Both the position numbers and the translations under genes were made by a program. DNA of 12,342 nucleotides from a virus (taxonomy: Duplodnaviria > Heunggongvirae > Uroviricota > Caudoviricetes), in the IMG/VR virus record IMGVR_UViG_2529293172_000014; one strand, given 5' to 3'. Shown in pieces: positions 581-12,342 of this stretch (position 1 is its first letter; each line of letters begins with the position of its first letter). Under the pieces are notes generated by a model. The model was not told where the DNA came from, searched no databases, and worked only from the letters and a program-made list of their open reading frames with translations.

Positions 581-1153
581 ATGCAAATTGGCTACATTCG
601 TGTGTCAACAAATGACCAAAACACAGATTTACAAAGAAATGCACTGAACTGCGCAGGATGTGAACTGATTTTTGAAGATAAAATAAGCGGAACAAAGTCA
701 GCCAGACCAGGCTTGAAAAAGCTGCTCAGAACGTTATCAGAAGGAGATACGCTGGTTGTCTGGAAGCTGGATAGGCTTGGCAGAAGTATGAAACACCTTA
801 TCACGCTTATAGAGGAGTTGCGGGAAAAAGGTGTTAATTTCCGTAGTCTGACAGACAGTATTGACACATCAACACCCATGGGGCGTTTCTTTTTTCATGT
901 CATGGGTGCTTTAGCAGAAATGGAACGTGAATTAATTGTTGAGAGAACACTGGCCGGACTGGCAGCTGCACGCGAACAGGGACGCATTGGCGGACGTCGC
1001 CCGAAGTTGACAAAAGAACAACATGAGCAAATAGCGAGGTTGATCGAAAATGGCTACAGCAGGAAACAGTTGGCAATTATTTACGATATCGGTGTATCGA
1101 CGATTTATCGTTATCATCCTGTAGAGAAGCGCCAAACTCAATCTGAGCTGTAA
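581..1153 (+). CDS. cin: Serine DNA invertase, Cin/Gin/Hin/Pin/Min family
   Basis: MQIGYIRVSTNDQNTDLQRNAL... with the catalytic Ser in GYIRVST, conserved VVWKLDRLGRS and MGRFFFHVMGALAEMERELI blocks, and a C-terminal HTH (GYSRKQLAIIYDIGVSTIYRY). ATG at 581 is preceded by AAAGAGG; the TTG at 572 in the ORF track is a less likely start. Symbol cin is chosen from the P1-like context; the gene could equally be a Min-type allele. Confidence 0.9.
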   Translation: MQIGYIRVSTNDQNTDLQRNALNCAGCELIFEDKISGTKSARPGLKKLLRTLSEGDTLVVWKLDRLGRSMKHLITLIEELREKGVNFRSLTDSIDTSTPMGRFFFHVMGALAEMERELIVERTLAGLAAAREQGRIGGRRPKLTKEQHEQIARLIENGYSRKQLAIIYDIGVSTIYRYHPVEKRQTQSEL

Positions 1154-1588
1154 TTCTAATGCCGCGTCGGTGTAATTTATCTTGATAGAATAGGTACATT
1201 TATCGCGCGGCACATCAATTCGATGTATCTAGCGCCTGCTGACCGCTAATGAAAACTGTTCTCGAAATGTTGTCCCTAGTCCGAGACTAGGGTATCACCT
1301 CTGGAAAGCATACGCAGAACCTTTTTTAACCCAGGGTGCCCAGCCTTTTTGCTGCTCGCCTTATTCGCAAAAATTAGCTCACATCCTGCGCTTTCAAGTG
1401 CTTTTCACTGCATAGCTGTGTTTTGTTCATTTGTCTATATGCGTACATAGCCTATTAGCATATTTTCTGCCCACTATCGTTATTTATTGCAAGCTACAGG
1501 TTTTAATTAACAAAACCAGTGTGTGTGGAAATCACAAAGTGCATACCGTTCTCAAATGTTGTTCAACTTACTGTTGTATAGGTAAAAA

Positions 1589-1852
1589 ATGACATTTTAT
1601 GTACATATCGTGATGTTATCCCTTCTTGGTGGGGTGTATTCGTATTTGAGTGGGCTATGTGAAAACCGTTACGAGTCTTCATGCAAGAAATTGCTGGCCG
1701 AATGTATTTCCGCCGTACTTGCTGGCTTTATTGGCATGTATCTCGCGGAATATAAGGACATGAATGAAAGCCTTCAGAGCTGCATGGTTCTTATTTTCAG
1801 CGCCAATAGCAGGCTTATTATTGAAGGTTCCAAAAGTCGGTTGAATAGGTAA
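1589..1852 (+). CDS. Hypothetical small membrane protein (two hydrophobic segments)
   Basis: 87-aa ORF with hydrophobic stretches VHIVMLSLLGGVYSYLSGL and ISAVLAGFIGMYLA. No convincing Shine-Dalgarno sequence; lies in an AT-rich intergenic region ahead of the holin gene. Could be a lysis-associated membrane peptide or a spurious ORF. Confidence 0.3.
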   Translation: MTFYVHIVMLSLLGGVYSYLSGLCENRYESSCKKLLAECISAVLAGFIGMYLAEYKDMNESLQSCMVLIFSANSRLIIEGSKSRLNR

Positions 1853-1900
1853 GTCTCTTATGCAACATAACCGGTTGAGAAGTTACTTTGCATACCATTA

Positions 1901-1920
1901 CCTCCTGACAACGTAGGAGG
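1901..1920 (+). promoter_or_regulatory. Hairpin that can sequester the Shine-Dalgarno sequence of the holin gene
   Basis: CCTCCT (1901-1906), 8-nt loop GACAACGT, AGGAGG (1915-1920). The 3' arm is the AGGAGG ribosome-binding site 6 nt upstream of the GTG start at 1927. Confidence 0.35.
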
Positions 1921-1926
1921 GAACTT

Positions 1927-2256
1927 GTGCTTGACACACAGGAATTAGCTCCAGTTGCTATTGCGCTCCTGCTTTCAGTAATTGGTGGGATAGGCACGTT
2001 CCTGATGGATGTCCGAGACGGTCGCCAGTCTGGCAATTTGTTGGGATTGGTTACGGAGATCTTTGTTGCAGTGACAGCTGGCGCGGTGGCGTACCTATTG
2101 GGGCAACACGAGGGCTGGGAGTTATCAATTACGTACTTAATGGTAACGATAGCCAGCAATAACGGTCATGAGGTGATTTCAGGGATGAAACGAGTGAATA
2201 TCGATAGCATTCTGAATGTTCTTACAAGTTTGGTGAAAAAGGGAGGCGGGAAATGA
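1927..2256 (+). CDS. lydA: Holin-like small membrane protein (LydA-like)
   Basis: 109 aa, GTG start with a strong AGGAGG RBS. Hydrophobic segments LAPVAIALLLSVIGGIGTFL and LLGLVTEIFVAVTAGAVAYLLG, charged C-terminus KKGGGK. Position at the head of the dar operon matches recalled P1 lydA. Not alignment-verified. Confidence 0.6.
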   Translation: MLDTQELAPVAIALLLSVIGGIGTFLMDVRDGRQSGNLLGLVTEIFVAVTAGAVAYLLGQHEGWELSITYLMVTIASNNGHEVISGMKRVNIDSILNVLTSLVKKGGGK

Positions 2257-2696
2257 TTGGCTGGGGTGTATGCGTTCTTGCGTTAGCCTTAGCCGATCGC
2301 TATTTGCTAAAACGCAAGGACATCACGCATTTAGAACTTGGTGATGTGGAAATTAAACCGGGTTTCATCCGGGTGCCGTTCAAATACCGGTCTAAATTCC
2401 CGTTTTTGCGCGGCGCAACGGTCAGATATTGGATCCGCGATGTTCAGAAGCCAACGACAGTGATTGAAGGCGAACAACGTTGTCTGACGTCGGCTGAACA
2501 GGGCGAAAACAGTGAATGGTTGTACATACCCACTGAATATATGGGTAAAGGAGAACGGCTGTGGCATTTCAACGTCATGGTTACGCATGGCGACTCGTTC
2601 ATTAACCCGTTGTATCGGATTTTCCCTGTTACTCAGCAAATCCGCAGAAGTTACGTAATAAATCTCGCACAGGATGTGTCAGATGACGAAAAATAA
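2253..2696 (+). CDS. lydB: Antiholin-like protein (LydB-like), N-terminal hydrophobic anchor
   Basis: 147 aa; ATGA start/stop overlap with the preceding gene, RBS AGGGAGG. N-terminal MIGWGVCVLALALA segment then a soluble domain. Assignment by position and size relative to recalled P1 lydB. Confidence 0.5.
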   Translation: MIGWGVCVLALALADRYLLKRKDITHLELGDVEIKPGFIRVPFKYRSKFPFLRGATVRYWIRDVQKPTTVIEGEQRCLTSAEQGENSEWLYIPTEYMGKGERLWHFNVMVTHGDSFINPLYRIFPVTQQIRRSYVINLAQDVSDDEK

Positions 2697-3285
2697 GTAT
2701 GCAACGGTCGATTTTGACCAGGTTAATGAAAAGGGGCTGAAATCCCTTATCGCGGCGATCAATAAAACCGGTGTTACGGTAATTGAGGTTGACTCCAGCA
2801 ACCGCGCAACAACGAAAGATGGCGTTAAAGTTAAAACCGCAAAGCTGGTTCTTAACGACGGACAAATTCTTGCCATACAGGTAAACGATACTGGCGATAT
2901 ATCGTCTGTGAGGCTGAATGGAAAAGCTATTCCTAACGCTCAGTCGCCGGATATCAAGACGCTTGGTACCGTCATGGGGCAAGCGGCCCGCAAAAACTCC
3001 GCAAAATTCCAGAAATCACTGATCGCCAAAGCGAAACGTGTTGCCAATCCGGTAGACAAGAAACCGGCAGTAAAATCCAACTTTCAGCGCCTGCAAGAGG
3101 CAAAACAGCGGAATGCTCAGGTGGTTGCCGCTTATAAATCAGCGCAGAACTCGGTGTCTTTCAATCAACAGCAGATCACTGATTTGCGGGCGAAGCTGGA
3201 TAAGGAGACAGGCCGACTCAATAACGAAAAGGCCCGAAATGGCGAACTCAAACGCCGTCTTAAGCAACTGAAAGCAGGAAATTAA
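2683..3285 (+). CDS. hdf: Hdf-like head-morphogenesis protein of the Dar system (paralogous to the DarA N-terminal region)
   Basis: Start chosen at the second ATG (2683, MTKNKYATV), which has AGGA 8 nt upstream; the 2674 ATG has no spacing for an RBS. Shares LNDGQILAIQV / KNSAKFQ blocks with the downstream DarA-like protein (LSDGQTISILF / KNSAKFQ). C-terminal K/R-rich coiled-coil-like tail. Confidence 0.55.
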   Translation: MTKNKYATVDFDQVNEKGLKSLIAAINKTGVTVIEVDSSNRATTKDGVKVKTAKLVLNDGQILAIQVNDTGDISSVRLNGKAIPNAQSPDIKTLGTVMGQAARKNSAKFQKSLIAKAKRVANPVDKKPAVKSNFQRLQEAKQRNAQVVAAYKSAQNSVSFNQQQITDLRAKLDKETGRLNNEKARNGELKRRLKQLKAGN

Positions 3286-3286
3286 C

Positions 3287-5206
3287 ATGGAACAGTTCAA
3301 TATCAATAAAGGGGTGACGATCAAGCCTGGGCTTGACGTGCTTCCCCCGCCAGTGACTGATGATGAATATCGCGCATTAATGGCCGGTGAGGACCGCTAT
3401 CTGATGACGGAATCCAACACCCTGGAGGAAATCGAGGCTACGTTCTTCTATGACACGCCGATCCACTGGTGTGCTACGGATTTACTGGAGGCGATTAGTT
3501 CTACTCGTTTGCAGTTACACCGGACCATGCAGGCATTTGTCCGGGCATTGAACCAGAAGCTGAATGGTACCGGAATCTCTGCGGGGAGTGATAAAACGGG
3601 GGATGTGGCCCAGAGCGGCGCGCGCGCGATCGGCGGTGCTGAAATTGGCCGGGCACGTAACGTTAACGGGCTGCCGGTCCTGCCAGCCATTATTCCGCTC
3701 AGTGATGGTCAGACTATCAGCATTCTGTTTCATAGCCCGACAGCGGAAAACCGGATCACCAATAGCGATACGCTGGTTGCTTTCCAGTTCTTACTGAATA
3801 AAAAAGACGTTACTCACACCGTTGCTCCGATGAGTGGACGTGATATGACGCTGGCGCAGGTCACCATGAAACTTGCCAACCTTGCAGAGAAAAACTCGGC
3901 AAAATTTCAGCGTGCGCAGAAGAAGAAAAAAGCCCTTGTTGATGAAATAACCCAACTACAGGCTGACAGTGACCAGAAAGAGGATGCCATGAGCGACCTC
4001 GTGGATCAGGTGGCAGCGGTAGAAGGGCAGAAGGTAGATCTGGAGCAGAAAATTAACGCTGTTGCATCGGAAGCGGATTCTCTTTATGAAGAGAATGAGC
4101 GTTTGCAGACGGAGATTGATCAGCTCAATCGCACTGGTGGGCGCGATACCATTGCTCCTGCGGGGATGACTGGTGGACACTCTCGCGCGATGACGGATCG
4201 CCTTGCCAGTATCAAAAATCGTATGCATATGAACGGGGAAGTGACGCTCAGTAATGGTGCATCAATGAAGCAATTCATTGAGGACGGCGAAGGGTATATC
4301 CAGTTAACCGATTCGGATGGCAGCGTGTACATGATCAAGGCTAAATCCATACAGGGTGTGGACATGGCAGATGCGATCGGCAAGCTGTTTAAAGCCTATA
4401 AAGCGGGTAATGTATCGGAATACCTGGTCCAACCAGAAGAACATAAACCGGAAAACGTCGAACCTGAACCAGCGGAGGATACCGGTAGCTCTTCGCCTGA
4501 ACCAGAAGTCTCTGTAGGTGCATATCGATATGCCCTGCAAATGCGTCCGGCGGCCCCTGGCGCAATACCTGAAGGTAACAAAGCAATTCTGCCGCGCCCT
4601 GATGAAGGTGACCCGTATTATGAATATGCACGCTACGGCATTGCTACTTACGATACCCCGCTTTCTGATCAGCAAATGAGTGAGTACGACCTGAAGTTAT
4701 TGCCTCGCGAGGATTCTTTCGACTTCCTGGCGAAGACACTTACTAATGGTCCGTTTGGCAAATATGCACAAAAAGCTCTGGAGCTGGCCACCAGCTCACC
4801 AGACGAGTTCCGCGTAATGCTGAAAACTCAGTTTCAAAAAACTTTCCCCAATATTGCGTTTCCGGGGGGCGCTGGCACCGAGAAAATGGTGCAGAGCATG
4901 ATCAATGCATTGCAGGCCGAAGTCGGTGAGATTACTCAGCCAGAACCTGCCCCGGCACAGCCTGATGAAACGGTTAGCGAAGCAGATGCAGAGGCTAATA
5001 AAGCCATTGAATATCTCAATAACGTGATGGATATGCAAAGCACTGACATGGCGGAGATCCGTAACGCCCGGGGTAATGTCCGGGAAGCGATTGCAGCCCT
5101 TCAGGCTGCCGGGCGTTTTGAGGAAAACGAAGAGCTGGTTAATGGCGCTGCTCGCCACTTGGCTGATCTGCTGGTAGCAATCCAGAAAGCGGGGGTAGCG
5201 GCATGA
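3287..5206 (+). CDS. darA: DarA-like internal head / antirestriction protein
   Basis: 639 aa; starts 1 nt after the hdf stop with an AGGAA RBS. Central coiled-coil-like region (LVDEITQLQADSDQKED...ENERLQTEIDQL) and an acidic Pro/Glu-rich linker (PEEHKPENVEPEPAEDTGSSSPEPE). Size and operon position match recalled P1 DarA. Confidence 0.65.
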   Translation: MEQFNINKGVTIKPGLDVLPPPVTDDEYRALMAGEDRYLMTESNTLEEIEATFFYDTPIHWCATDLLEAISSTRLQLHRTMQAFVRALNQKLNGTGISAGSDKTGDVAQSGARAIGGAEIGRARNVNGLPVLPAIIPLSDGQTISILFHSPTAENRITNSDTLVAFQFLLNKKDVTHTVAPMSGRDMTLAQVTMKLANLAEKNSAKFQRAQKKKKALVDEITQLQADSDQKEDAMSDLVDQVAAVEGQKVDLEQKINAVASEADSLYEENERLQTEIDQLNRTGGRDTIAPAGMTGGHSRAMTDRLASIKNRMHMNGEVTLSNGASMKQFIEDGEGYIQLTDSDGSVYMIKAKSIQGVDMADAIGKLFKAYKAGNVSEYLVQPEEHKPENVEPEPAEDTGSSSPEPEVSVGAYRYALQMRPAAPGAIPEGNKAILPRPDEGDPYYEYARYGIATYDTPLSDQQMSEYDLKLLPREDSFDFLAKTLTNGPFGKYAQKALELATSSPDEFRVMLKTQFQKTFPNIAFPGGAGTEKMVQSMINALQAEVGEITQPEPAPAQPDETVSEADAEANKAIEYLNNVMDMQSTDMAEIRNARGNVREAIAALQAAGRFEENEELVNGAARHLADLLVAIQKAGVAA

Positions 5207-5568
5207 CACTATCAGCTATTGAGTTAATGGATCTCAGCGATAAGTTGGATGCTTTGATGTCCAAAGCGGCTACCGCGAGTGGCATGGAGTTGCTGGATAT
5301 CAGCGATGAAATTGACCAGATCATGCAACAGATGGGGTACGGTGTGTCCGGTGGCAGTAGTGGCGAGGAAAAACAACCTTCGGTACATGATGGTGTGCCA
5401 AAACTGGTTGCTGATTTCCTGGCTGATAAATTCGTCGATCAGAGCACCGATGCATTTATCGGTACCTTGCAGGATTTGAGTCAATATGTTGGCACATACA
5501 TCGACCTGGACCAGGTTAAACAGCACACGGCGGCATGGATAGCCGCCAACATTAAAGAGGCAGCATAA
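5203..5568 (+). CDS. ddrA: DdrA-like small Dar-operon protein
   Basis: 121 aa; ATGA overlap with darA. Contains an internal tandem repeat IELMDLSDKLDALM / MELLDISDEIDQIM. Confidence 0.55.
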   Translation: MTLSAIELMDLSDKLDALMSKAATASGMELLDISDEIDQIMQQMGYGVSGGSSGEEKQPSVHDGVPKLVADFLADKFVDQSTDAFIGTLQDLSQYVGTYIDLDQVKQHTAAWIAANIKEAA

Positions 5569-5580
5569 GGCGTAACAGGG

Positions 5581-8568
5581 ATGAGCTTAAGCGATCAGGT
5601 GGTAATGGCCACCAGCATAGAAACGCTGATCGAGCTGCTAAAGAACCTGCCCGGTTATGGGCGGGTTTCGTATGTGGTGACAGCGAAGGGAGACGAGGTA
5701 AAAACAGCGTTTGATATCGTCGATGCCTCAGCTCTTTTGGTATCCAATACTCTGGATGGGAAAATTAATCCTGACTATCCCCAGGAACTTCAGCCGCGCG
5801 ACCGGACCCGCGCATCCAGCCTTCTTCAGGTTAACCAGATATCCAAAGATTTGCGGCCTGCTCAGCTTACTGATTCCGGTTTATCCAGCCATGGTGCGCC
5901 GATAATTGGTGAGGACAATGCCGTTGAGTCAGGTAATGGACGGACCATGGGGATCATCAAAGCCTATCAGGACGGCAATGCGGATCGGTATCGTGAGTAC
6001 CTGATTGATCATGCGACCGAATTCGGCATACGACCTGAAAAGGTTGAATCAATGACGGCTCCGGTACTGGTGCGCCGCCGGTTAACCAAGGTTGACCGCG
6101 TTCAGTTTGCCAAGGACTCAAATATTTCTGATCTTCAGGAAATGGCAGCCAGTGAAAAGGCTTTTGTTGATGCCGACAGCATAACACCGGCGATGATGGC
6201 GCTTTTTAACCCGTCAGAAAGCGGAGATCTGCTTAGCCGCAGTAATGACGCGTTTATTCGCGGATTTATGACGCAAGTTGGTGCCACACAGGCGGCTGGC
6301 CTTGTAACTGAAGATGGGCGACCAACACGGCAACTTGTAGACCGTATACAAAACGCGATCTTTGCCAAGGCATATAAGGATGCGCGCCTGGTAAGGATGG
6401 TTGCAGAAGAACCTGATCCGGACATGCGTAATGTTCTGACGGCGCTTAATGCGGCAGCCAATGATTTTGTCCAGATGCAGGCTTTATCAGGAGAAGCGCA
6501 CAAGCAGGCTGTGACAACTATCGTTGATGGTATTGAAACAGCGGATAGCCTCGATAAAAAGGCGCTGGCGGCATTGAAAGATGCGGTAGACCTGGTAAGG
6601 CAATCGAAGGAGTCAGGCCAACATATTAACGATGTTATTGCTCAGGGGGATATGTTCAGCGAAACGGCCCCGGAAGTGAAAGCACTCGCGTTGTTCATCG
6701 TCGCGAATAACCGTAGCGCGAAGCGTATGGCCTCCGCCTTTAAGTTGATGGCTCAACGTATCAATGATGAGTTACAGCACCAGGGCCAGGCGCTGGGGGA
6801 TATGTTTGGCGGTGGTGATGTGTCGTTACAGGATATCCTTCGCCAGGTGTCTCAGGAACTGGAAAACGAAGGCATGCAAGGGATATCCGGCGGTCTTTTC
6901 GAGTCCGTTTCCGGCGGTAGTTACAATGGTGTTGCTCCATATACCAGTTTGCTATTACATCGGGCATCCGGCATCAAAGACATTATTCATCTGATCAGGC
7001 TGCTTTCCCGTACAGATCCCCAGGATGAACAGCTTGTACAAGTGCTTGCGCATTTTGTTCGAATGCCTGTTGCCGACGTGAAAAAATGGTGCCGATTATT
7101 CGGTATCAGCAATTCGTTACTTCGCGGCTTGTTAAATCACGCATCCTCCCTTGGGCGCGATGGCTTTGACGAGATAGCGCAGGCGATAAAAAACGGAGAT
7201 ATGCCACCAGCTATTGACTGGTTTTCCATTCGCCCAACCAGGGTGAAAGCATTCCTTAGCGCGGCGCATTCGGCATCACCATTGGCAGAAATGGTTCAGA
7301 GGTTGTCGCTCATATTCACAGACCATACCGCGTTGGGTGATCTGACTCTGGACGAGATGAAAGAAGCCTCCATTCAGTGGGCCGATCAACAAAATGAGGT
7401 TAACTCTGACTTCTTGCCAGCATTCAGGAAGGCCGTTAGTAAAGCTGATGATGCCCGTGGAATTCTGAGGGCATTTAAGGCATTGCAAAGTCAGGTTAAT
7501 AAACATGTCGGTGATATCGATGGGGTAACGGCGGAAGGCAGGGATATCCTTAAAGAGCACGGCATAACGCCAGAGTTTATTGATGAGATCAGGACTGATA
7601 TGCAGCGTGAGGTCGTATCGTCCCTGCAAATCGTAGCCAGAGCGTTGGCGGATGCTAATCCGAAGAGTGCGGCCATTGTTAACCGTGTTATTGGTGATAT
7701 TGAAGCATCGGAGGGCATGGGGGCGCTGAAACTCTTCCTTTCGCGAGCGTTTAATCCTAACGGCAATATTCTCCCCGGCATTATTGGTGAGGCTAAAAAG
7801 TATGTCAGCGAAGAAGAACTTGAGCATCTTGACCAACTACTTAAGCGATTCTCATATAACCCGCAGACACGCTGGCAAATGAATCAGCAAAGTATGGGTT
7901 CGGTCCACGAGAAAGTGTTATCTGCCATGAACAGTGCGATCGCCAACTCATCCGTATCTGAAGAAAAAGCTCTTGAGTGGGCCGACTCTTTTATCACGGA
8001 AGAAGTGGAAGAAGCCCGCGCTGGACAGAATGGTGGGATAGACCTGCGCAAGGAACTTGCTGATATTTATCGCCTGACCGGCGGTAAAATTTCGACCTTA
8101 TCAAAGGTGGTTCACCACCAGGGAAGGGCATATGCAAATATTAATGGTGTTGTTGCTGTCAATTTGAACGATGAAAATGCAAGTGCACTGTGGCACGAGC
8201 TGGGTCATCATCTTGAGTACAGTAACCTTGGTTTGTTAGAGAAAGCCCGGTCATTCCTGAAGGCCAATGTTGAAGGGGATAAGCCATCTTTCGTTAATAT
8301 CGGTGGGCGTGGCAAGCCTGAATGGTGCTTCAGATCTCGATTGAGTAATATTTATATGGCGAAGGTATACCCGCCAGCCTCAGTAAGTAACACCGGGAAA
8401 ATTCGGCAGAAATCACCGACTATTTCCAAAACGTCAGCAACGGAAGTATTCTCTATGGCTCTTCAGTTGTATCATGACAAAGAGGCCGCTGCCGCATCAC
8501 TGATGAATGGTGACGGATTGCTGGAACTGTTATTAGGTGTGGCAAAGGAGCTAAATAATGCAGATTAA
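5581..8568 (+). CDS. ddrB: DdrB-like large Dar-operon protein; carries an HEXXH motif near the C-terminus
   Basis: 995 aa, uninterrupted ORF in operon with the preceding genes. WHELGHHLEYS at codons 871-877 (nt 8191-8211). Size and position match recalled P1 DdrB. Confidence 0.6.
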   Translation: MSLSDQVVMATSIETLIELLKNLPGYGRVSYVVTAKGDEVKTAFDIVDASALLVSNTLDGKINPDYPQELQPRDRTRASSLLQVNQISKDLRPAQLTDSGLSSHGAPIIGEDNAVESGNGRTMGIIKAYQDGNADRYREYLIDHATEFGIRPEKVESMTAPVLVRRRLTKVDRVQFAKDSNISDLQEMAASEKAFVDADSITPAMMALFNPSESGDLLSRSNDAFIRGFMTQVGATQAAGLVTEDGRPTRQLVDRIQNAIFAKAYKDARLVRMVAEEPDPDMRNVLTALNAAANDFVQMQALSGEAHKQAVTTIVDGIETADSLDKKALAALKDAVDLVRQSKESGQHINDVIAQGDMFSETAPEVKALALFIVANNRSAKRMASAFKLMAQRINDELQHQGQALGDMFGGGDVSLQDILRQVSQELENEGMQGISGGLFESVSGGSYNGVAPYTSLLLHRASGIKDIIHLIRLLSRTDPQDEQLVQVLAHFVRMPVADVKKWCRLFGISNSLLRGLLNHASSLGRDGFDEIAQAIKNGDMPPAIDWFSIRPTRVKAFLSAAHSASPLAEMVQRLSLIFTDHTALGDLTLDEMKEASIQWADQQNEVNSDFLPAFRKAVSKADDARGILRAFKALQSQVNKHVGDIDGVTAEGRDILKEHGITPEFIDEIRTDMQREVVSSLQIVARALADANPKSAAIVNRVIGDIEASEGMGALKLFLSRAFNPNGNILPGIIGEAKKYVSEEELEHLDQLLKRFSYNPQTRWQMNQQSMGSVHEKVLSAMNSAIANSSVSEEKALEWADSFITEEVEEARAGQNGGIDLRKELADIYRLTGGKISTLSKVVHHQGRAYANINGVVAVNLNDENASALWHELGHHLEYSNLGLLEKARSFLKANVEGDKPSFVNIGGRGKPEWCFRSRLSNIYMAKVYPPASVSNTGKIRQKSPTISKTSATEVFSMALQLYHDKEAAAASLMNGDGLLELLLGVAKELNNAD

Positions 8569-8869
8569 AATCGCAGCGCCATTAGGCGGAGATGCCATTA
8601 TCGAATTTGATGATAATGAAGAAGTTTCCGGGCGTTTAAGCATTATCTCCGGTGACATTACCGAGGACATGATCGCTGAAGCCATAGCTGGGGCAAATCC
8701 CAATAGCTATATGGGATTCGTTAACACCCTTGATGCTCCCGCAAGTGATGTTCTCCGAACGCTGCATCTTTACGCTGGCTGGTTTGTTGATTGGCCAGCA
8801 GTAGATGGTGGCGATGAGGACGACGACGACGATGATTTTGGTGATCATGTAGACCAGATCGTATATTGA
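8558..8869 (+). CDS. Small highly acidic protein with a poly-Asp tract
   Basis: 103 aa; AAGGAG RBS 7 nt upstream of the ATG; overlaps the ddrB stop by 11 nt (translational coupling). Roughly 24 Asp/Glu against 3 Lys/Arg; DEDDDDDD tract encoded by GATGAG(GAC)4GATGAT at 8813-8836. Confidence 0.55.
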   Translation: MQIKIAAPLGGDAIIEFDDNEEVSGRLSIISGDITEDMIAEAIAGANPNSYMGFVNTLDAPASDVLRTLHLYAGWFVDWPAVDGGDEDDDDDDFGDHVDQIVY

Positions 8870-8871
8870 AG

Positions 8872-8897
8872 AAATCCCGCCAATTGGCGGGATTTTT
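8872..8897. terminator. Rho-independent, probably bidirectional, terminator between convergent operons
   Basis: Perfect 10-bp stem AAATCCCGCC (8872-8881), loop AATT, GGCGGGATTT (8886-8895), followed by TT on the plus strand. Lies exactly between the stop of 8558..8869 (+) and the stop of 8901..9995 (-). Confidence 0.7.
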
Positions 8898-8900
8898 ACC

Positions 8901-9995
8901 TCACGAGAAACTCTTTTCTGATGTCAGCCAACAGTGCTCGTGCATATCTCTTGGTGGTTTTTCGACAAATGCCTCTTCAGCCACATCCTGCCAGGGGATT
9001 TGTTTAGCCCATTCAGTTATAGCGTTATGGTTTGCCGAGAATAACGGTATTGTATAGGCCTTCAGCCAGTCTAATGTGCTGGAGTTGTGTTTTTGAGCGT
9101 GATGTTTCGCATGGTGTTTGGCGATCACGATCGTAGGCACTACCCATTTACTACCGTCAGTCATTGTGAAGTGCATATTACGGGGAACAGATGACTTTTC
9201 CATCAACTCCCGAATCCCTGGGAATTTCCCCAAGATCAATCGGCGATATTCATCGCTATTGCGCCCACCAAACTCTTTGGCTTTGAATTCAAGATATGCT
9301 TCAGAAACGAGAGGTGAATCCTCTGTGTTTAGAGTTATCGCCGTGAAAAAACCAGCAGGATTGTTTTTACTATGGGCCAACCGGTGATGCGAATCATAAA
9401 AGTACCCTTTCTCGCGTTCCGATGGTTTCGACAGCAACAGCAGGCGCGAGTCATAATTGGTTAAATTGCCAGTTATCACTGCATGAGCGCGATCGCTGAT
9501 TTCCGCCGAGTTAATAACGATGAAAAGATCGTGCGGTCCAGTAAAACCAGCCAGAGACTCTTCGTTATTCAGACAATAGGTTATATAGACGCATCCCCAT
9601 GTTTCACTGATATGCACCAACCCTTTGTCAGGGTGTATTCTGAAATAATTGCCAAGAAAAGTGTGTTTTTGGGTAACTCGCTCCCAATAACGGAACATAT
9701 AGTCAATTATTGTTTTTCGACAATCGTTAATCGCAGGAGAAACAACCACTGTACGGGAACACGAATACAGTATTGTTTGCAGGATGCTAATCACTGCCAC
9801 AATAGAGGTTTCCCCAATACCATGTGGTGTGGTGGCAGTGATTTTGGCTCCGGTGTTCTTTATCGCGTTAATAATTTTTGCTTGATGAGGTGTTAACTCA
9901 ATATCAAGCAACTCTTTTGCTGCCAGTTCCCAATTGTCTTTATACCGTTCTATCAGTGCTAACCAGGCAGATTCATTCTGTATACGATTAATCAC
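8901..9995 (-). CDS. Hypothetical protein (364 aa); degenerate P-loop-like GIGETS segment and a His-rich HAKHHAKHHAQKH motif
   Basis: Long minus-strand ORF; GTG start at 9995 with GAGGTGG RBS; overlaps the upstream gene's stop by 8 nt. No motif I can assign with confidence. The layout (LTPHQ...GIGETS...DLFIVINSAE...ITGN) loosely recalls an ATPase domain, but the Walker lysine is absent. Confidence 0.6.
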   Translation of the reverse strand: MINRIQNESAWLALIERYKDNWELAAKELLDIELTPHQAKIINAIKNTGAKITATTPHGIGETSIVAVISILQTILYSCSRTVVVSPAINDCRKTIIDYMFRYWERVTQKHTFLGNYFRIHPDKGLVHISETWGCVYITYCLNNEESLAGFTGPHDLFIVINSAEISDRAHAVITGNLTNYDSRLLLLSKPSEREKGYFYDSHHRLAHSKNNPAGFFTAITLNTEDSPLVSEAYLEFKAKEFGGRNSDEYRRLILGKFPGIRELMEKSSVPRNMHFTMTDGSKWVVPTIVIAKHHAKHHAQKHNSSTLDWLKAYTIPLFSANHNAITEWAKQIPWQDVAEEAFVEKPPRDMHEHCWLTSEKSFS

Positions 9996-10776
9996 TTTCC
10001 ACCTCTTCCGTGGTGTTTTCTTGCAGTTCTGTTAATGCAGCACGACATAGGTTCCGGGCATTGGCTATAGCCACACTTTTGACTTCATCCGTCATCGTGC
10101 AGGTAATGTACTGATCGAGTTCTTCAGCGCGGATGATGCTTTTGCCAATCAGAAACTGTATTTGCCATAGCAGATCGGCATCCATAATCAGAATTTCTGC
10201 CGGGCCTTCAGGGCCAGCCGGGAAGGAAACATAAGACTGTTTGCCCAGGCCGACAACTCGACAACTTGCTTCAAGAATTGCGCGCTTGAGGTCTGACTTT
10301 ATAACGGAAACAGGTTGATTTTCACCAGTGATTACGCCGTTGACATGGAAAGGCATGTAGCTTGAAATACGCTCTACTTTCCACACGCCAGCAAGCGATC
10401 CTTCATGCAGCACAATGGGGGTAACCGCGAGTTTCATCTCACCATATAACTGCTGGCAGATAGCTGGATTGCTGAATACATCTAAAGGCTCACATTCAAA
10501 CAGCGGCGCAATCTGCATGAGGTCCATCATGGTCATCCCTGGGGTACGAGCAGTAATGAATTTGCGCATACCAGTATCCATTGCGCTCCAGATTGCTACA
10601 CCATGCTTTTTGCTCACTTCTTCAGTAAAGCCAAGGTGGCACATGATGGTTTTTTCGATAGCCAGATCAGAGATAGAAACCTTTTCGCCAGGTACTCCAT
10701 CATTATTGATGGTCACTTCGACACTCTGGCCATTACGTAGGCGGTATTGAATGGTTTTAGTATTTTGTGCTGTCAT
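9988..10776 (-). CDS. Hypothetical protein (about 263 aa from ATG 10776)
   Basis: Long minus-strand ORF, translationally coupled to the downstream 8901..9995 gene. Start placed at MTAQNTK (ATG 10776) because the track's extension to 10896 would overlap the small upstream ORF 10791..10973; starts at 10890/10896 cannot be excluded. No recognisable catalytic motif. Confidence 0.5.
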   Translation of the reverse strand: MTAQNTKTIQYRLRNGQSVEVTINNDGVPGEKVSISDLAIEKTIMCHLGFTEEVSKKHGVAIWSAMDTGMRKFITARTPGMTMMDLMQIAPLFECEPLDVFSNPAICQQLYGEMKLAVTPIVLHEGSLAGVWKVERISSYMPFHVNGVITGENQPVSVIKSDLKRAILEASCRVVGLGKQSYVSFPAGPEGPAEILIMDADLLWQIQFLIGKSIIRAEELDQYITCTMTDEVKSVAIANARNLCRAALTELQENTTEEVESD

Positions 10777-10790
10777 AGTCTTTTCTCTGC

Positions 10791-10973
10791 TTAAAAACTG
10801 ATGTATTGCGTCTTCAGGTGGGTTAGGAATGTTTTCCCACCAGCGAAAGCAATATCTCGTGGTGTTCTGTTCGTTAAAAACGCGTGCCATTGCCAACTTT
10901 GGCGTTTTTTAGCGAGTTCGTGCTTTTGTTGGCGTTTGGACCACCGCTTTTCTTTCAGTCGTTTTTTACTCAT
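10791..10973 (-). CDS. Possible small basic protein (60 aa), tightly packed between ssb and the next gene
   Basis: MSKKRLKEKRWSKRQQKHELAKKRQ...; starts 5 nt after the ssb stop and ends 15 nt before ATG 10776. Weak RBS. Could instead be a non-coding spacer; an 8-bp inverted repeat AAAAACGC...GCGTTTTT (10876-10883 / 10903-10910) lies inside it. Confidence 0.3.
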   Translation of the reverse strand: MSKKRLKEKRWSKRQQKHELAKKRQSWQWHAFLTNRTPRDIAFAGGKTFLTHLKTQYISF

Positions 10974-10978
10974 AAACT

Positions 10979-11467
10979 CTAAAACGGAATATCGTCTTCA
11001 AAGTCCATTGGAGGTTCGTTATTGGCGCTGCTCTGAGGTTTGCCGCCACCGCTGTATTGCTGGTGGTTTTGAGGTTGGTTTGACTGCCCCCAGCCATTTG
11101 AGGACTGTGAATCGTCGCGGCGAGTGCCGATCATTTGCATGGTGCCGCCCTGGCTGACGATAATTTCCGTCGTGTAACGTTCTACACCGGCGTCATCAGT
11201 CCACTTACGGGTTTTAAGTTTCCCTTCGATGTAGACCTGAGAACCTTTTCGTAAATACTCACTCGCAATTTCAGCAAGTTTTCCGAACAAAACGACTTTA
11301 TGCCATTCTGTTTGCTCTTTCTGTTGGCCCGTTTGCTTATCGCGCCATGATTCATTCGTTGCGATGCTGAGTCTTCCGACTGCGCCGCCATTTGGTATAT
11401 ACCTGATCTCCGGGTCTTGCCCCAGGGTACCAATCAGGATGACTTTGTTTACACCGCGTTGTGCCAC
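10979..11467 (-). CDS. ssb: Single-stranded DNA-binding protein
   Basis: [23 protein letters not shown]...[14 protein letters not shown]-fold core, Gly/Gln-rich linker and the C-terminal acidic tail [12 protein letters not shown] start at 11467. Confidence 0.95.
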
Positions 11468-11636
11468 TTTTCTTACCTAATAAAATAAATTAATTAGAGC
11501 AATAATGTATATCTTTGAAACGTGGCTAACAAGTGATTTGCATTATCCTGTGCCTTCTAAAGGGATCGAGTCAGTCGGTATTGGCTGTGAATGAGTGTTT
11601 GTCCTGGAGCGTAAAAAATTCGCTTATGAGGTCTTT
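11468..11636. promoter_or_regulatory. Divergent promoter region between ssb (leftward) and lyz (rightward)
   Basis: 169-bp AT-rich non-coding gap between divergently oriented starts; contains TTGAAA (11515-11520) and CATTAT (11541-11546). No promoter element pinned down with confidence. In P1, lyz is a late gene, so an Lpa-type late promoter is expected here. Confidence 0.3.
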
Positions 11637-12194
11637 ATGAAGGGAAAAACAGCCGCAGGAGGCGGTGCAATTTGCGCTATCGCGGTGATGATTACCATCG
11701 TGATGGGTAATGGCAATGTGCGAACCAACCAGGCGGGGCTTGAGCTGATTGGTAACGCTGAAGGTTGCCGACGTGATCCATACATGTGCCCGGCGGGGGT
11801 ATGGACTGACGGGATCGGTAATACACACGGGGTAACGCCGGGTGTGCGAAAAACCGACCAGCAAATCGCCGCTGATTGGGAAAAGAATATCCTGATCGCT
11901 GAACGCTGTATTAATCAGCACTTCCGGGGCAAAGACATGCCCGATAATGCCTTCAGTGCAATGACAAGCGCGGCATTCAATATGGGATGCAATAGCTTAC
12001 GGACCTACTACAGCAAAGCGCGAGGCATGCGAGTAGAAACGTCCATCCACAAGTGGGCGCAGAAAGGGGAATGGGTGAATATGTGTAACCATCTCCCTGA
12101 TTTCGTGAACAGTAACGGCGTGCCCCTGCGAGGTTTAAAGATTCGCCGTGAAAAAGAACGCCAGCTTTGCCTGACGGGGCTTGTCAATGAATAA
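11637..12194 (+). CDS. lyz: SAR (signal-arrest-release) endolysin, T4-lysozyme-like muramidase (P1 Lyz-type)
   Basis: Start at ATG 11637 (GAGG RBS 6 nt upstream), not the track's 11595. 185 aa beginning MKGKTAAGGGAICAIAVMITIVMGNGN (weakly hydrophobic Gly/Ala-rich SAR segment), then NAEGCRRDPYMCPAGVWTDGIG with Glu42, Cys44, Cys51, Thr57 and Cys13 at the positions I recall for P1 Lyz. Confidence 0.9.
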   Translation: MKGKTAAGGGAICAIAVMITIVMGNGNVRTNQAGLELIGNAEGCRRDPYMCPAGVWTDGIGNTHGVTPGVRKTDQQIAADWEKNILIAERCINQHFRGKDMPDNAFSAMTSAAFNMGCNSLRTYYSKARGMRVETSIHKWAQKGEWVNMCNHLPDFVNSNGVPLRGLKIRREKERQLCLTGLVNE

Positions 12195-12342
12195 ACTCCG
12201 GCAGCTCCGCCGACTTTCGACAATGAAGTTATCGCTGGCGGCGATAGTTTTTGACTCGATTTTCATGGCGGTATATGTGCTCAATGAGACGTGGCCACTG
12301 GAACCGCTATTGTATGCCGGGCTTCGGCTGTGCCTGACATTT
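12187..12342 (+). CDS. 5' part of a membrane-protein gene overlapping the lyz stop (possible lysis accessory or spanin-like); runs off the window
   Basis: ATG at 12187 (inside the lyz terminal codons, ATGA-type coupling) or at 12223 opens a frame encoding MNKLRQLRRLST-MKLSLAAIVFDSIFMAVYVLNETWPLEPLLYAGLRLCLTF, a basic N-terminus followed by a transmembrane-like stretch, with no stop before the window end. Confidence 0.4.
   Translation, partial: MNKLRQLRRLSTMKLSLAAIVFDSIFMAVYVLNETWPLEPLLYAGLRLCLTF

Follow-up and report, generated by a model that had tools for sequence, protein, structure and literature searches.

The gene at positions 11637-12194 of the DNA analysed here (a single stretch of 12,342 nucleotides, hereafter the window) can be assigned with very high confidence to lyz of a P1-like phage-plasmid, which encodes the prototype class I SAR (signal-arrest-release) endolysin with the cysteine-switch mechanism of P1 Lyz. 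The predicted product matches the crystallised P1 endolysin Lyz (PDB 1XJT) at 185 of 185 residues (E 1.8e-128), so chance is not an issue for its identification, and it is identical over residues 29-185 to PDB 1XJU, the other crystallised form of the P1 lysozyme. We take 1XJT to be the active full-length enzyme and 1XJU to be the secreted, inactive form that lacks the SAR segment. Identity to the annotated P1 Lyz (gp17; YP_006484) is likewise 100%, and the P1 annotation (NC_005856) names the gene lyz. Family models agree with this assignment: Pfam PF00959 (Phage_lysozyme) matches residues 40-174 with 80.3 bits against a 22.3-bit gathering cut-off (E 2e-22), and phrog_7 (endolysin) matches at E 7e-69. 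An earlier reading of the DNA made without database searches (the sequence-only reading) had proposed a SAR endolysin of the P1 Lyz type. That proposal is borne out, since the protein is P1 Lyz at all 185 residues; the alignment to P1 Lyz that it called for gives identity at every residue, and the cysteines and catalytic residues occupy positions equivalent to those of P1 Lyz in the alignments. The protein is therefore already known, and its mechanism was established about twenty years ago with the very same polypeptide. Lyz is the SAR endolysin of P1, and LydD is its pinholin (PMC9025707).

The lyz reading frame runs from the ATG at 11637 to the end of a TAA codon at 12194 (558 nt, or 185 codons and a stop). 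A mechanically generated list of open reading frames starts it at an in-frame GTG at 11595, and inspection of the sequence upstream of that codon revealed no Shine-Dalgarno motif; the ATG is favoured over the GTG because a GAGG lies 5 nt before it. Over 943 nt around the gene, identity to the reference P1 genome is 98.7%. Within the gene there are 5 nucleotide differences from reference P1 lyz, each of them a synonymous change in the third base of its codon, which indicates that the forward frame is under selection and rules out the open reading frames antisense to it. Two such frames overlie lyz on the minus strand (11571-11921 and 12008-12223) and were rejected on this basis. Compared with P1, the region shares all 185 Lyz residues, the late promoter LPlyz, the C1 operator, the divergent ssb and the overlapping lydD and lydE; it differs in the 5 synonymous changes, one extra A in the 5' leader and three upstream substitutions, of which one falls in the -10 box of the predicted sigma-70 promoter Plyz.

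Residues 5-26 of Lyz (TAAGGGAICAIAVMITIVMGNG) form a segment of transmembrane length that is weakly hydrophobic and preceded by basic residues (Lys2 and Lys4), as is characteristic of SAR endolysins. Among all 19-residue stretches of Lyz, those beginning at residues 5-6 score highest on the Kyte-Doolittle scale (mean about 2.1), and 12 of the segment's 22 residues are Ala (5), Gly (5) or Thr (2), in line with the Gly/Ala-rich N-terminal segment recognised in the sequence-only reading. Features of a class I (P1 Lyz-type) enzyme are also present: a cysteine in the SAR segment (Cys13), a cysteine at the catalytic-triad position (Cys51) and a nearby partner (Cys44). The sequence-only reading had placed Cys13, Glu42, Cys44, Cys51 and Thr57, as well as the gene itself, correctly. 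Seven cysteines occur in the protein, at positions 13, 44, 51, 91, 118, 150 and 178; the last four had escaped that reading.

Conservation of these features was assessed among relatives of Lyz in a large protein collection, which holds 646 at E <= 1e-5. The conservation set comprised 119 sequences, namely the Lyz query and 118 full-length cluster representatives with 50-99% identity. Mean column identity in the alignment is only 45%, and Glu42, Cys44 and Cys51 are nevertheless invariant in all 119 sequences, while Cys13 and Thr57 are each retained in 118. Gly, Ala, Ser and Thr together make up on average 45% of the stretch that aligns with residues 5-26 in the 119 homologues. Persistence of invariant cysteines and of a SAR-like N-terminus despite this level of divergence argues that they are selected features of the family and not accidents. 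Cys91, Cys118, Cys150 and Cys178 (codons at 11907, 11988, 12084 and 12168) are invariant in 119/119, as strictly as Cys44 and Cys51. They presumably form structural periplasmic disulfides. There is a slim chance that they take part in further regulated thiol-disulfide steps, in which case the three-cysteine model would understate the complexity of the Lyz switch.

A motif scan of the whole protein found a single E-X8-[D/C]-X5-T motif, EGCRRDPYMCPAGVWT, at residues 42-57, which corresponds to the published definition of the triad as Glu-X8-Asp/Cys-X5-Thr (PMC3556154, PMC8228626). T4 lysozyme (gene e, NC_000866) was used to fix the register. BLASTP aligns Lyz residues 35-94 with T4 residues 4-69 without gaps over the catalytic stretch at an E value of 0.067, which is not significant alone, and pairs Glu42 with Glu11, Cys51 with Asp20 and Thr57 with Thr26. 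The same register was obtained with hhalign from a profile of the 119 Lyz homologues, again at an E value that is not significant alone (0.49). These pairwise alignments serve for register only and are backed by coordinates on a shared model: T4 lysozyme and Lyz both match PF00959 above cut-off, and on the profile Lyz residue 40 corresponds to position 2 and T4 residue 11 to position 4, so that both catalytic glutamates lie on position 4. The comparison with T4 lysozyme that the sequence-only reading had suggested thus places Glu42 and Thr57 opposite Glu11 and Thr26 in both alignments and on the Pfam model. Its description of the three cysteines as flanking Glu42 needs amendment; the positions stand and the wording does not, as Cys51 is a member of the triad and Cys13 lies 29 residues before Glu42, in the membrane segment. 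Asp is replaced by Cys in the P1 Lyz triad (PMC8228626), and the triad Cys is kept in a disulfide until activation (PMC3556154); Cys51 is thus the second catalytic residue and the sequestered one, not merely a flanking residue (PMC3556154, PMC8228626). Likeness between the two lysozymes resides in PF00959 and in the E-X8-D/C-X5-T triad in the same register, whereas identity is only about 23% over 66 residues, and T4 lysozyme is a soluble, cytoplasmic enzyme without a SAR segment that has Asp20 where Lyz has Cys51 and depends on a holin for release.

Table 1. Features of lyz and of other parts of the window, with positions counted from the first nucleotide of the window.
Feature	Position	Strand	Remarks
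lyz CDS	11637..12194	+	185 aa + stop; SAR endolysin, T4-type (GH24) lysozyme
lyz Shine-Dalgarno GAGG	11628..11631	+	5 nt 5' of ATG 11637
SAR (signal-arrest-release) segment, codons 5-26	11649..11714	+	weakly hydrophobic, Gly/Ala/Thr-rich, hydropathy peak
Cys13 codon TGC	11673..11675	+	free thiol inside SAR segment; Cys in 118/119, Tyr in one
Glu42 codon GAA	11760..11762	+	catalytic glutamate; equivalent to T4 lysozyme Glu11; invariant 119/119
Cys44 codon TGC	11766..11768	+	pivot cysteine of disulfide exchange; invariant 119/119
Cys51 codon TGC	11787..11789	+	catalytic-triad residue at T4 Asp20 position; in disulfide in inactive form (PMC3556154, PMC8228626); invariant 119/119
Thr57 codon ACT	11805..11807	+	equivalent to T4 lysozyme Thr26; Thr in 118/119, Ser in 1
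Late promoter LPlyz, -22 box AAGTGATTT, -10 TATCCT	11531..11549	+	base-for-base identical to annotated P1 LPlyz
C1 repressor operator Ossb (former Op21), ATTGCTCTAATTAATTT	11487..11503	-	ssb-lyz intergenic; identical to annotated P1 operator
ssb	10979..11467	-	divergent from lyz
lydD, pinholin gene	12187..12342	+	starts 8 nt inside lyz end; first 52 of 84 codons, window ends
lydE, GTG start	12291..12342	+	overlaps lydD, cut by window end; position mapped from P1 annotation
lydC-like holin, 87 aa	1589..1852	+	Pfam PF16083, 1.2e-9; 62.8% identity to P1 LydC
lydA holin, 109 aa	1927..2256	+	109/109 identical to P1 LydA; PF16083; downstream of LPdar 1880..1898
lydB, LydA antagonist (antiholin)	2253..2696	+	PF16084, 8e-104; 98.6% identity to P1 LydB
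Serine invertase gene, intact	581..1153	+	only 69% nucleotide identity to P1 cin; orientation relative to lydC opposite to P1 cin
Decayed P1-type cin remnant, first ~60 codons	~1285..1461	-	MLIGYVRI*TNEQNTAMQ*KALESAGCELIF..., in-frame stops; adjoins invertase
ORF, 364 aa	8901..9995	-	phrog_5902 (unknown function), E 1e-186

On the model established in published work on the same protein, Lyz would be synthesised at a late stage of infection and exported through the host Sec system. The weakly hydrophobic N-terminal segment would remain uncleaved and anchor the inactive enzyme in the inner membrane, leaving the lysozyme domain on the periplasmic side and triad residue Cys51 locked in a disulfide. 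The partner of Cys51 in the inactive form is reportedly Cys44, in a Cys44-Cys51 bond described by Xu et al. 2005 (Science 307:113). Depolarisation of the membrane by the pinholin LydD or the holins LydA and LydC, or slow spontaneous release, would let the SAR segment exit the bilayer; Cys13, once out of the membrane, would be free to attack the Cys51 disulfide. A Cys13-Cys44 bond, again as reported by Xu et al. 2005, forms on activation and liberates Cys51. The enzyme would then refold, and the Glu42/Cys51/Thr57 site would cleave peptidoglycan and bring about lysis. Substitution of either cysteine, as C13S or C51S, has reportedly been found to abolish activation of P1 Lyz. Several sources describe the activation of Lyz through topological, conformational and disulfide changes (PMC9025707, PMC9239132, bioRxiv 10.64898/2026.09.09.750462), and the SAR domain is a target of the Dsb system (PMC9239132). 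Lyz is described as exported by Sec, released without proteolysis and controlled through disulfides (bioRxiv 10.64898/2026.09.09.750462). Sec dependence, the lack of signal-peptidase cleavage and release on depolarisation are credited to Xu et al. 2004 (cited in PMC9025707 and bioRxiv 10.64898/2026.09.09.750462).

Three other readings of the gene were weighed, and between them they carry very little of the probability. An enzyme of class II (phage 21 R type) or of the Lyz103 "disulfide-caged" type would be activated by conformational repositioning of the Glu or by opening of a Glu-caging disulfide, without a catalytic Cys. Such an enzyme would share the fold family and the N-terminal SAR architecture; R21 (3HDE) and RrrD (4ZPU) are detectable relatives of Lyz (E ~1e-7), and Cys44 lies two residues from Glu42. 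This reading is nonetheless highly improbable, as the position of T4 Asp20 holds Cys and not Asp, the SAR segment contains a cysteine whereas class II enzymes have none there (bioRxiv 10.64898/2026.09.09.750462), and P1 Lyz, to which the protein is identical, is the prototype of class I.

Processing of the N-terminus on export, as in a secreted endolysin with a cleavable signal peptide that is controlled by membrane energisation alone (phage fOg44 Lys44 type), is more improbable still. A hydrophobic N-terminal segment following Lys2 and Lys4 would suit a signal peptide, but Gly, Ala and Thr make up about 55% of it, a composition seen typically in SAR domains rather than in signal-peptide H-regions (PMC7692668), and non-proteolytic release has been reported for the same sequence (bioRxiv 10.64898/2026.09.09.750462). 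Full-length 1XJT, moreover, keeps residues 1-185, and retention of Cys13 in 118 of the 119 homologues would serve no purpose in a segment destined for removal. The probability is close to nil that translation starts at an internal Met or Val and yields a soluble lysozyme that stays in the cytoplasm and depends on a holin, like T4 e or lambda R, with no SAR segment in the protein. In-frame ATG and GTG codons do occur at 11685-11718, but none of the internal starts is preceded by a Shine-Dalgarno motif, in contrast to the GAGG 5 nt before ATG 11637; homologues conserve the N-terminal segment together with its Cys13, the sole substitution in it relative to P1 is synonymous, and the crystallised protein begins at the Met of ATG 11637. 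The class I cysteine-switch enzyme of P1 is thus the reading that we retain.

Related SAR endolysins provide points of comparison for class I Lyz. Lyz103 of Erwinia phage ERA103, the subject of a report by Kuty et al. 2010 on "disulfide caging", is said to be a SAR endolysin held inactive by a periplasmic disulfide that the SAR-domain Cys resolves. Its disulfide reportedly cages the catalytic Glu and its triad keeps Asp, whereas Cys is the triad residue in Lyz of the P1 type. Phage 21 R (R21; PDB 3HDE, 3HDF) and E. coli DLP12 RrrD (4ZPU), both of class II, have the GH24 fold family in common with Lyz (E ~1e-7). Like Lyz, they carry a SAR domain at the N-terminus, are exported by Sec, are tethered to the membrane and work with a pinholin (PMC9239132, bioRxiv 10.64898/2026.09.09.750462), and they are unlike it in having Asp in the triad, a SAR domain without cysteine and conformational activation without disulfide exchange (PMC3556154, bioRxiv 10.64898/2026.09.09.750462).

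As read from the DNA, lyz is intact and is equipped with the P1 late promoter, a ribosome-binding site and every sequence element of the switch. A box similar to the -22 box of LPlyz occurs at LPdar (1880-1898). A generic sigma-70 scan of the plus strand upstream of lyz found no promoter, which fits late-promoter control and is not evidence against expression. The -10 hexamer of a predicted sigma-70 promoter, Plyz (11469-11474), reads TATCTT in P1 and TTTCTT here, with LPlyz unchanged; this change overlaps, on the opposite strand, the -10 of the predicted P1ssb promoter. [quoted passage not shown] As far as it can be read, LydD is identical to P1 LydD at 52 of 52 residues and matches phrog_21930 (holin; E 1.7e-34), and LydD has been shown experimentally to be a pinholin that works with Lyz (PMC9025707). 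Removal of lydE has no effect on lysis (PMC9025707). In NZ_CP026725.1, a plasmid 99.3% identical to the window, the sequence beyond this point carries pro and prt, as in P1.

The other lysis genes lie near the opposite end of the window. Within the lysis set it is the accessory holin, expressed early, that diverges: the LydC-like protein has 62.8% identity to its P1 counterpart against 94-100% elsewhere. It is 87 aa long here and 93 aa in P1; identity to P1 reaches 100% for LydA, Lyz and the portion of LydD inside the window, and 94-99% for neighbouring genes. Five terminator-like matches to a hairpin followed by a T-run, two of them overlapping, lie on the minus strand at 11857-12246, antisense to lyz and lydD, where 0.9 +/- 1.0 would be expected from shuffled sequences. 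These hairpins, which are consensus matches, might stop read-through from the convergent prt-pro late operon, which in P1 reads towards this region.

Across 1285-8867 and 9987-12342 the window has 96.5-96.7% identity to P1 and the same gene order (lydC-lydA-lydB-hdf-darA-ddrA-ddrB-hxr-...-isaA-ssb-lyz-lydD), with protein identities of 94-100% except for LydC (63%). The statement in the sequence-only reading that Lyz anchors the whole window to the P1 family is upheld by this collinearity. At the corresponding places P1 has nothing equivalent to segments 1-1284 and 8868-9986, and the element is therefore not P1 proper. The plasmids that match over the full length, at 99.3-99.5%, come from E. 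coli, are non-mobilizable and measure about 93-98 kb; one of them is typed IncY. At a threshold of at least 95% identity, lyz itself occurs in 502 plasmid records (458 Escherichia, 33 Salmonella, 8 Klebsiella, 2 Shigella and 1 Cronobacter) and 19 phage records. Judged by these comparisons, the window belongs to a Punavirus-like, P1-like (IncY) phage-plasmid or plasmid prophage that is distinct from P1 itself.

The two segments that depart from P1 have contents of their own. Positions 1-520 contain a 48-nt repeat in two direct copies, each ending in the 22-nt site CCTTCCCCCAAACCAACGTTTT (27-48 and 499-520). Each copy sits at the 5' end of a short minus-strand cassette for a tail-fibre C-terminus, such as 48-509 with its Collar domain. 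In a 99.3% identical plasmid, NZ_CP026725.1, the site is found 7 times against 0 expected by chance: six copies share one orientation and sit at an array of six tail-protein cassettes, and the seventh is reversed and falls within the long tail-fibre gene. This arrangement has the look of an inversion system with several cassettes, unlike the single C segment of P1, and it resembles the Min system of plasmid p15B. Segment 8868-9986 shows no similarity to the isaB and IS1 stretch found at the same position in P1. The 364-aa frame at 8901-9995 bears a weak resemblance to phrog_2, a terminase large subunit (4.5e-9), and returned no match in Pfam or PADLOC; one GenBank record names the protein "terminase large subunit".

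The gene described here is shared by hundreds of sequenced Enterobacteriaceae plasmids and opens no new question. The invariance of its cysteines across the family is a confirmation of the published model rather than a discovery. Its significance is one of annotation only: the element is identified as a P1-like phage-plasmid, and its lyz-lydD-lydE late lysis operon is marked.
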